Source: a virus (lineage: Duplodnaviria; Caudoviricetes). Taken from it: a stretch of 64,000 nucleotides of DNA. This document shows, piece after piece, positions 54,591 to 54,951 of the stretch. The stretch's first letter is position 1; the number at the start of each line of letters is the position of its first letter. Both the position numbers and the translations under genes were made by a program. The notes beneath the pieces were generated by a model, which did no database searches, had not been told where the DNA came from, and saw only the letters and a list, made by a program, of their open reading frames with translations. Where the stretch lies: positions 134,525-198,524 of IMG/VR virus record IMGVR_UViG_3300031998_000009. The stretch is one strand, 5' to 3'.

Positions 54591-54785
54591 TTAAAATTCT
54601 TCGTCAAAACCTGTATAATGTTTTTTATTATCATTCCGTTTATATTCTTTCCAGTTCACAGGTAGCTTTGGTTTCTTTCCGAAATAATAAATACCGTTAT
54701 CATCAAATCCATCTTCTAAATAGGATGTTTTAGCTGGAATAGAACAAGTATCTTCTTTTATTCTTAATTTTATACTATTTTTCAT
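54591..54785 (-). CDS. Small putative cargo protein
   Basis: MKNSIKLRIKE|D leader. Confidence 0.55.
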   Translation of the reverse strand: MKNSIKLRIKEDTCSIPAKTSYLEDGFDDNGIYYFGKKPKLPVNWKEYKRNDNKKHYTGFDEEF

Positions 54786-54951
54786 ATACATCACTCCACA
54801 TCTCTTCAGGTGTTGAATATGTTGGACTGGATAAAGTGCCTTTCATTATTTTATTTGCTTCTTTCATAGCCTCAATAGTTTCTTTGTTTAGCTTATATGT
54901 TTTTTTCTCTCTTATAAGTTTAGCTTCGGATTCTCTTATTCTTAATTTCAT
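54775..54951 (-). CDS. 58-aa RelB/DinJ antitoxin C-terminal-like peptide with a capsid-targeting-like leader
   Basis: Not in the ORF track. AAGGAG RBS; MKLRIRE|SEAKLIREKKTYKLNKETIEAMKEANKIMKGTLSSPTYSTPEEMWSDVYEK. Confidence 0.7.
   Translation of the reverse strand: MKLRIRESEAKLIREKKTYKLNKETIEAMKEANKIMKGTLSSPTYSTPEEMWSDVYEK

Follow-up and report, generated by a model that had tools for sequence, protein, structure and literature searches.

DinJ-YafQ toxin-antitoxin pairs (PF04221 and PF15738), such as those of E. coli and of the Streptococcus prophage phiGBSVK-A, are encoded antitoxin first with a short overlap, the antitoxin carrying a toxin-binding tail and the YafQ toxin three histidines. 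The internal proteins IPI-III and Alt of phage T4 are unrelated proteins that share a short N-terminal leader ending in [LIV]-x-E, and T4 provides the precedent for a capsid-targeting sequence that doubles as a leader cleaved by gp21 (PMC9026906). The loci of the T4 internal proteins are polymorphic and bounded by repeats (PMC2839356).

The locus described here appears to share characters with both systems. The 58-residue product of the gene under study, P0001, has the toxin-binding tail, and its phage relatives keep the gene order, the short overlap and the three-histidine YafQ. Unlike in DinJ-YafQ pairs, the phage antitoxin is devoid of the ribbon-helix-helix (RHH) domain, with a leader in its place in one lineage, and the phage toxin is fused to two further modules via L-x-E sites, has Asn at the position of Asp67 and is lost from the window genome. 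As in T4, a leader ending in [LIV]-x-E is present on unrelated proteins of the phage genome, a gp21-like protease gene is found and the locus is polymorphic and repeat-bounded; unlike in T4, the leader has its own sequence and the predicted cargo is a toxin-antitoxin pair. We think it probable, though by no great measure, that the cognate toxin of P0001 is a phage-encoded YafQ polyprotein, that P0001 is now orphaned in this genome and that the pair is probably head cargo.

An antitoxin tail without its DNA-binding domain

The window, the whole stretch of 64,000 nucleotides that was analysed, is part of a 198.5-kb T4-like phage contig, and is best represented in sequencing runs of ruminant gut metagenomes. 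Although the record is classed as linear, its first 55 nt (1-55) recur 219 nt before its end (198305 onward). P0001 is encoded at 54775-54951 on the minus strand, as are the other features of the locus mapped below, behind a good RBS (54959-54966), and both the open reading frame and its sequence agree with a preliminary description made from the DNA letters, which had presented the gene as an antitoxin mimic with a packaging leader.

Residues 21-53 (54793-54891), the predicted toxin-binding tail, score 23.2 bits against an HMM of bacterial DinJ/RelB-type C-termini (n=24, taken from the neighbours of bacterial YafQ genes), whereas shuffled versions of P0001 reach 11.0 bits at best, with 0 of 2000 attaining 23.2, and the next best among the 299 ORFs of the phage scores at most 7.4 bits. 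The profile comparison with RelB/DinJ that had been proposed, carried out with hhalign against eight DinJ/RelB proteins, likewise found similarity to antitoxin C-termini (95%, E 3.6e-8), with an alignment confined to the tail. BLASTP aligns P0001 to the DinJ of a Streptococcus prophage with 13 of 38 residues identical, and Firmicute DinJ tails are its best pairwise matches. The proposed absence of an RHH domain was borne out too, P0001 scoring -1.2 bits against an HMM of antitoxin N-terminal halves. With regard to databases, P0001 has no match to PF04221 or NCBIfam models and nothing significant among Pfam, NCBIfam, PHROGs, PADLOC and PDB sequences; tblastn against phage and plasmid records returned chance-level matches only, scans of viral contigs found no relatives, and a RelB/DinJ-named cluster of the ESM Atlas, at 0.79, lies under the usable level.

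The antitoxin alleles are under constraint, with pN 0.059 against pS 0.54 between the window and locus L005, and pN/pS of about 0.11 among leader-bearing alleles of type C (see below). As judged from these comparisons, P0001 is a captured fragment of a DinJ antitoxin that has lost its RHH domain, and not a full member of the RelB/DinJ family. Convergent mimicry was rejected because the tail is homologous to DinJ and linked to YafQ in relatives; of the term antitoxin mimic, what stands is a DinJ/RelB tail that has no RHH domain and follows a motif resembling a capsid leader, and what falls is the notion of an independent imitation.

A second RHH-less protein, P0005 (84 aa; L002:883-1137, also in L003 and L004), carries two tandem DinJ-type tails (57.9 bits) with no toxin gene called alongside, and is a better candidate than P0001 for a true orphan antitoxin or toxin sponge.

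The YafQ polyprotein of related phages

In 17 of the 17 related phage loci with readable downstream DNA, which belong to two lineages, YafQ is encoded directly downstream of the antitoxin with the same 11-nt overlap, and the flanking genes, where visible, are the same. The earlier statement that no cognate toxin is adjacent is thus correct for the window genome and misleading for its relatives, and the idea of an antitoxin orphaned throughout the lineage fails, since the relatives carry their own YafQ.

The relatives' toxin gene encodes 255-259 aa and starts 11 nt inside the end of the antitoxin gene. Its first 93 residues are a YafQ domain (PF15738, E 5e-28 and 1e-25; 97.5 and 89.9 bits against a curated cut-off of 30), with relatives in the PDB as well; the TIGR02385 cut-off is reached, and the TIGR00053 score lies under its own. 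After the GLTE that closes this domain comes a middle module, 94% identical over 47 aa to the 64-aa gene of the window (54591-54785), and then, after LE[S/G], by a third module, whose stand-alone, leader-bearing paralog in the window (51966-52307) matches it at 45-47% over 97 aa. The toxins of the two lineages are 54% identical and form one clade. The toxin tree names no donor, the phage branch being long and its placement unstarred. A homolog search with the YafQ domain alone gave no candidates, a search of longer proteins gave two phage fusions only, and the ESM Atlas gave nothing for the modules outside YafQ; folded from its sequence alone, the 255-aa toxin yielded no usable model (pLDDT 36).

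Among the C alleles the YafQ domain evolves with pN/pS of about 0.03 (some 20 synonymous and 1-3 replacement changes per pair), and the equivalents of His50, His63, His87 and Arg83 are invariant among the relatives. The residue equivalent to Asp67 is Asn in 17 of 17 phage loci (HIRPN), against Asp in 25 of 25 bacterial YafQs, and the equivalent of Phe91 is Gly in the phage proteins, Phe being absent from some bacterial YafQs also. The roles of these residues are known from E. coli YafQ, in which Ala at the position of Asp67 or Phe91 relieves toxicity and leaves partial cleavage (PMC4652777). Furthermore, the activity of a related toxin is tuned by its C-terminal residues (PMC7584586), and active HigB has an Asn beside its C-terminal His (PMC5027501), a position we infer to be equivalent to that of Asp67. 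The phage YafQ may therefore be a decoy, a weakened enzyme or an active one whose specificity has changed; attenuation may follow from the Asp67-to-Asn change in all of the phage YafQs, despite the three histidines that they keep. A literature search found no papers on the D67N form of YafQ or on YafQ inside the virions of jumbo phages.

Complex prediction gave 0.59 for P0001 with the relatives' YafQ domain, a weak result, against 0.18 for the best control. Of 80 solved complexes, 58 reach the mark that this score passes, as do 2 of 110 mismatches; among those reaching it at 0.60 or below are only 7 solved complexes and both mismatches. At least 92% of the contacts agreed between runs, with a partner pLDDT of at least 64, and the score may reflect memory of solved DinJ-YafQ structures. 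P0001 is thus weakly predicted to bind the YafQ of its relatives.

Alleles at the site and recent loss of the toxin

Four alleles occur at the site. Allele A, which is empty, consists of the leader and the middle module only (L014, L069 and run X3); allele B, that of the window, has the antitoxin and the short 64-aa gene; allele C has a leader-bearing antitoxin and a YafQ polyprotein whose internal leader is degenerate (L005-L013, L064, L065); and allele D has a leaderless, RHH-less antitoxin and the 54% identical YafQ, whose internal leader is intact (L001, L066, L067, L070, L071). The leader of the window antitoxin (54931-54951) has a second leader-coding repeat 178 nt away (54753-54773), identical at 19 of 21 positions, and allele A is devoid of exactly the 178-nt interval between the two repeats (joint 54752/54931 in run X3).

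Codons 1-52 of the window antitoxin show 0 differences in 156 nt from the toxin-bearing C-type allele L011, and the upstream gene, a 128-aa gene conserved in relatives (54965-55351), shows 1 in 387. The downstream module differs from the toxin-free L014 at 3 of 126 positions and from L011 at 13 of 126, and has an A-type tail. The leader-bearing 64-aa gene overlaps the antitoxin by 11 nt where the relatives' YafQ starts, and joins the middle module to the short tail of the toxin-free allele; the identity to L011 extends as far as the GGAG in the RBS of the toxin gene, where the junction alignment places the inferred recombination junction (54786-54798). Since the antitoxin DNA equals that of L011 and the downstream part is nearer to L014, the window allele appears to be a recent recombinant, and a recombination that swapped the toxin gene for the toxin-free allele is the simplest account of these alignments. 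Simple frameshift decay was rejected, as both ORFs are open and the junction follows the module borders. A gross assembly artefact is unlikely because one contig of the source run, which may be the same data and not independent, holds the whole stretch with the junction included. No independent samples with the antitoxin-only allele were found, so that it is known from one sample, and neither YafQ nor RelB was found elsewhere in the window's contig, which is estimated to be 86% complete.

The downstream flank is an NrdG2 radical-SAM activase (53879-54568, TIGR02495 over cut-off), of 229 aa in the window and 190 aa in some relatives (L005:8956-9528). An IS605/TnpB-type gene lies directly upstream of one leaderless antitoxin allele (L070:29-790). 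Elsewhere in the window, a gene with a PemK/MazF domain (E 9e-10) and a C-terminal HTH (56786-57655) has no antitoxin neighbour and is conserved in L005, L010 and L069, and a perfect 16-bp inverted repeat that resembles a terminator hairpin (56728-56765) lies between the PemK and exonuclease genes.

Because the absence of the toxin is a recent loss in one isolate, the step from the tail to a mimic directed at host toxins is weakened. According to that reading, P0001 would be delivered by the virion and would have been selected to neutralise YafQ/RelE-family toxins of the host on injection; the phage YafQ would perhaps serve it as a weakened carrier or stabiliser, and the window allele, free of toxin, would work alone. 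Phage anti-TA proteins such as Dmd, TifA and AdfA are known (PMC9391042), and a tail that follows a leader with no RHH domain, its affinity to Firmicute DinJ tails, an antitoxin ORF that stays intact in the window and the Asn of every phage YafQ allele are all consistent with such a role. Against it stand an antitoxin-only allele from a single sample, an antitoxin DNA so identical to that of the toxin-bearing allele that selection on the orphan state has had no time to show, and a phage toxin that keeps its catalytic histidines under strong constraint. Moreover, type II antitoxins are usually specific for their partners, and DinJ-YafQ is not, as far as we know, established as an anti-phage system in Firmicutes. 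We regard neutralisation of host toxins as distinctly improbable, though it keeps a small share of our belief because the phage YafQ may be attenuated.

The leader, probable head cargo and comparison with known systems

The N-terminal MKLRIRE of P0001 (54931-54951) is a putative capsid-targeting and prohead-protease propeptide, a function proposed by analogy with T4 (PMC9026906). This leader-like motif is enriched at N-termini: 12 of 299 predicted phage proteins carry the strict form K-L-x-[IVLMC]-x-E, against 0.6 expected. The phage contig encodes T4-like head proteins, namely a gp21-like protease, a major capsid protein and a portal (phrog_207, phrog_138 and phrog_213 between them), and [LIV]-x-E-[SA] occurs at 13 sites of the head protease, whose gene lies in the region of 34108 in the window, 2.3 per 100 aa, the 95th percentile of the proteome being 0.9. 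A candidate late-promoter motif, TATAAAT, is found 28 nt upstream of the gene that opens the apparent operon; it is only about twofold enriched near starts, and promoter scans remained at chance level.

Further leader-bearing genes occur nearby. A second polymorphic leader cassette beside the antitoxin site is a 196-aa gene (L005:6988-7578, L069:1486-2076) that occurs in some loci and is missing from others between the exonuclease gene and the 128-aa gene; it has no match in Pfam, and may resemble ADP-ribosyltransferases. The antitoxin site is occupied in a distant phage by a leader-bearing protein of about 490 aa with BspA-type LRRs (L015:2867-4339), joined via an internal leader to the same middle module.

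The favoured reading, that a phage lineage turned a DinJ-YafQ pair into head cargo, would work as follows. The antitoxin tail would bind and silence the phage's own YafQ during synthesis, and the complex would be carried into the prohead by the leader, which one lineage has on the antitoxin and the other within the toxin polyprotein. The gp21-like protease would then cut after L/I-x-E, leaving the freed YafQ with a C-terminus close to the native one; once injected, YafQ would lose the unstable antitoxin tail to degradation and would cut host mRNA on ribosomes. In the window genome the peptide is probably still made, without its partner, and may still be packaged. A stronger version, which we consider unlikely, would have the pair domesticated as a timed, virion-delivered weapon, in which the capsid leader took the place of the antitoxin's DNA-binding domain, the antitoxin served as both safety catch and loading adaptor for a leaderless YafQ, the prohead protease freed YafQ from its carrier and the toxin became active once the antitoxin decayed after injection. 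The reciprocal placement of the leader, on antitoxin or toxin polyprotein, comes from two lineages only. Since a leaderless antitoxin lineage exists (L001, L066, L067, L070, L071), a leader on the antitoxin is not needed, and it may have arisen incidentally, through insertion into a leader gene.

Such an origin is also the premise of a reading to which we give little credence, namely that of an ordinary, non-packaged cassette, selfish or serving phage competition, inserted at a leader-bearing gene, with the antitoxin leader and the toxin fusion as accidents. The RBS and first seven codons of the window antitoxin are those of the resident gene in the empty allele L014, antitoxins without leader exist and the site is polymorphic, with empty alleles in L014, L069 and run X3, all as a plain cassette would predict. 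It fits less well with the loss of the RHH domain, and hence of autoregulation, in all alleles, with the in-frame fusion of the toxin in both lineages, with L-x-E at the C-terminal end of YafQ and before the third module, or with a leader-type N-terminus whose two motif copies are kept across alleles. Least probable of all, and by our estimate very much so, is a cheater or immunity allele guarding against the YafQ of co-infecting sibling phages, whether injected or expressed: ruminant gut samples contain toxin-bearing, empty and antitoxin-only alleles alike, and 52 antitoxin residues are identical to those of toxin-bearing siblings, but the allele was found in one sample only, selection on the antitoxin-only state is not seen and the activity of the sibling YafQ is itself a prediction from sequence.

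If the head-cargo reading is true, the phage packs a ribosome-dependent RNase safely, by means of a toxin-binding tail and a head tag on the pair. The natural series of alleles, empty, antitoxin-only and two toxin-bearing types that differ in where the leader lies, makes both the role of the leader and cassette exchange at leader-coding repeats testable. More generally, what looks like an 'orphan antitoxin mimic' in a single phage genome may be left over from a recent loss, or may mark the beginning of such a counter-defence. DinJ-YafQ pairs and T4-type leader cargo are both known; a literature search found neither their combination nor leader-packaged toxin-antitoxin pairs.

Two further groups of phage proteins invite comparison. 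As in the case of anti-TA proteins (T4 Dmd, TifA, AdfA and orphan DarG-like antitoxins; PMC9391042, PMC11825919, PMC11481870), the window has an antitoxin-like phage gene with no adjacent toxin; unlike those proteins, which act on host toxins, P0001 bears a leader and normally, in its relatives, has its own toxin as a neighbour. Polyvalent proteins and head-packaged effectors (Iyer et al. 2017, PMC5512222) differ from this locus in that here a recognisable YafQ stands beside its own truncated DinJ, and no MPTase or MuF domain was found; they are alike in their multi-module architecture and in an RNase of BECR/RelE-like fold that is predicted to be packaged, cut and injected.
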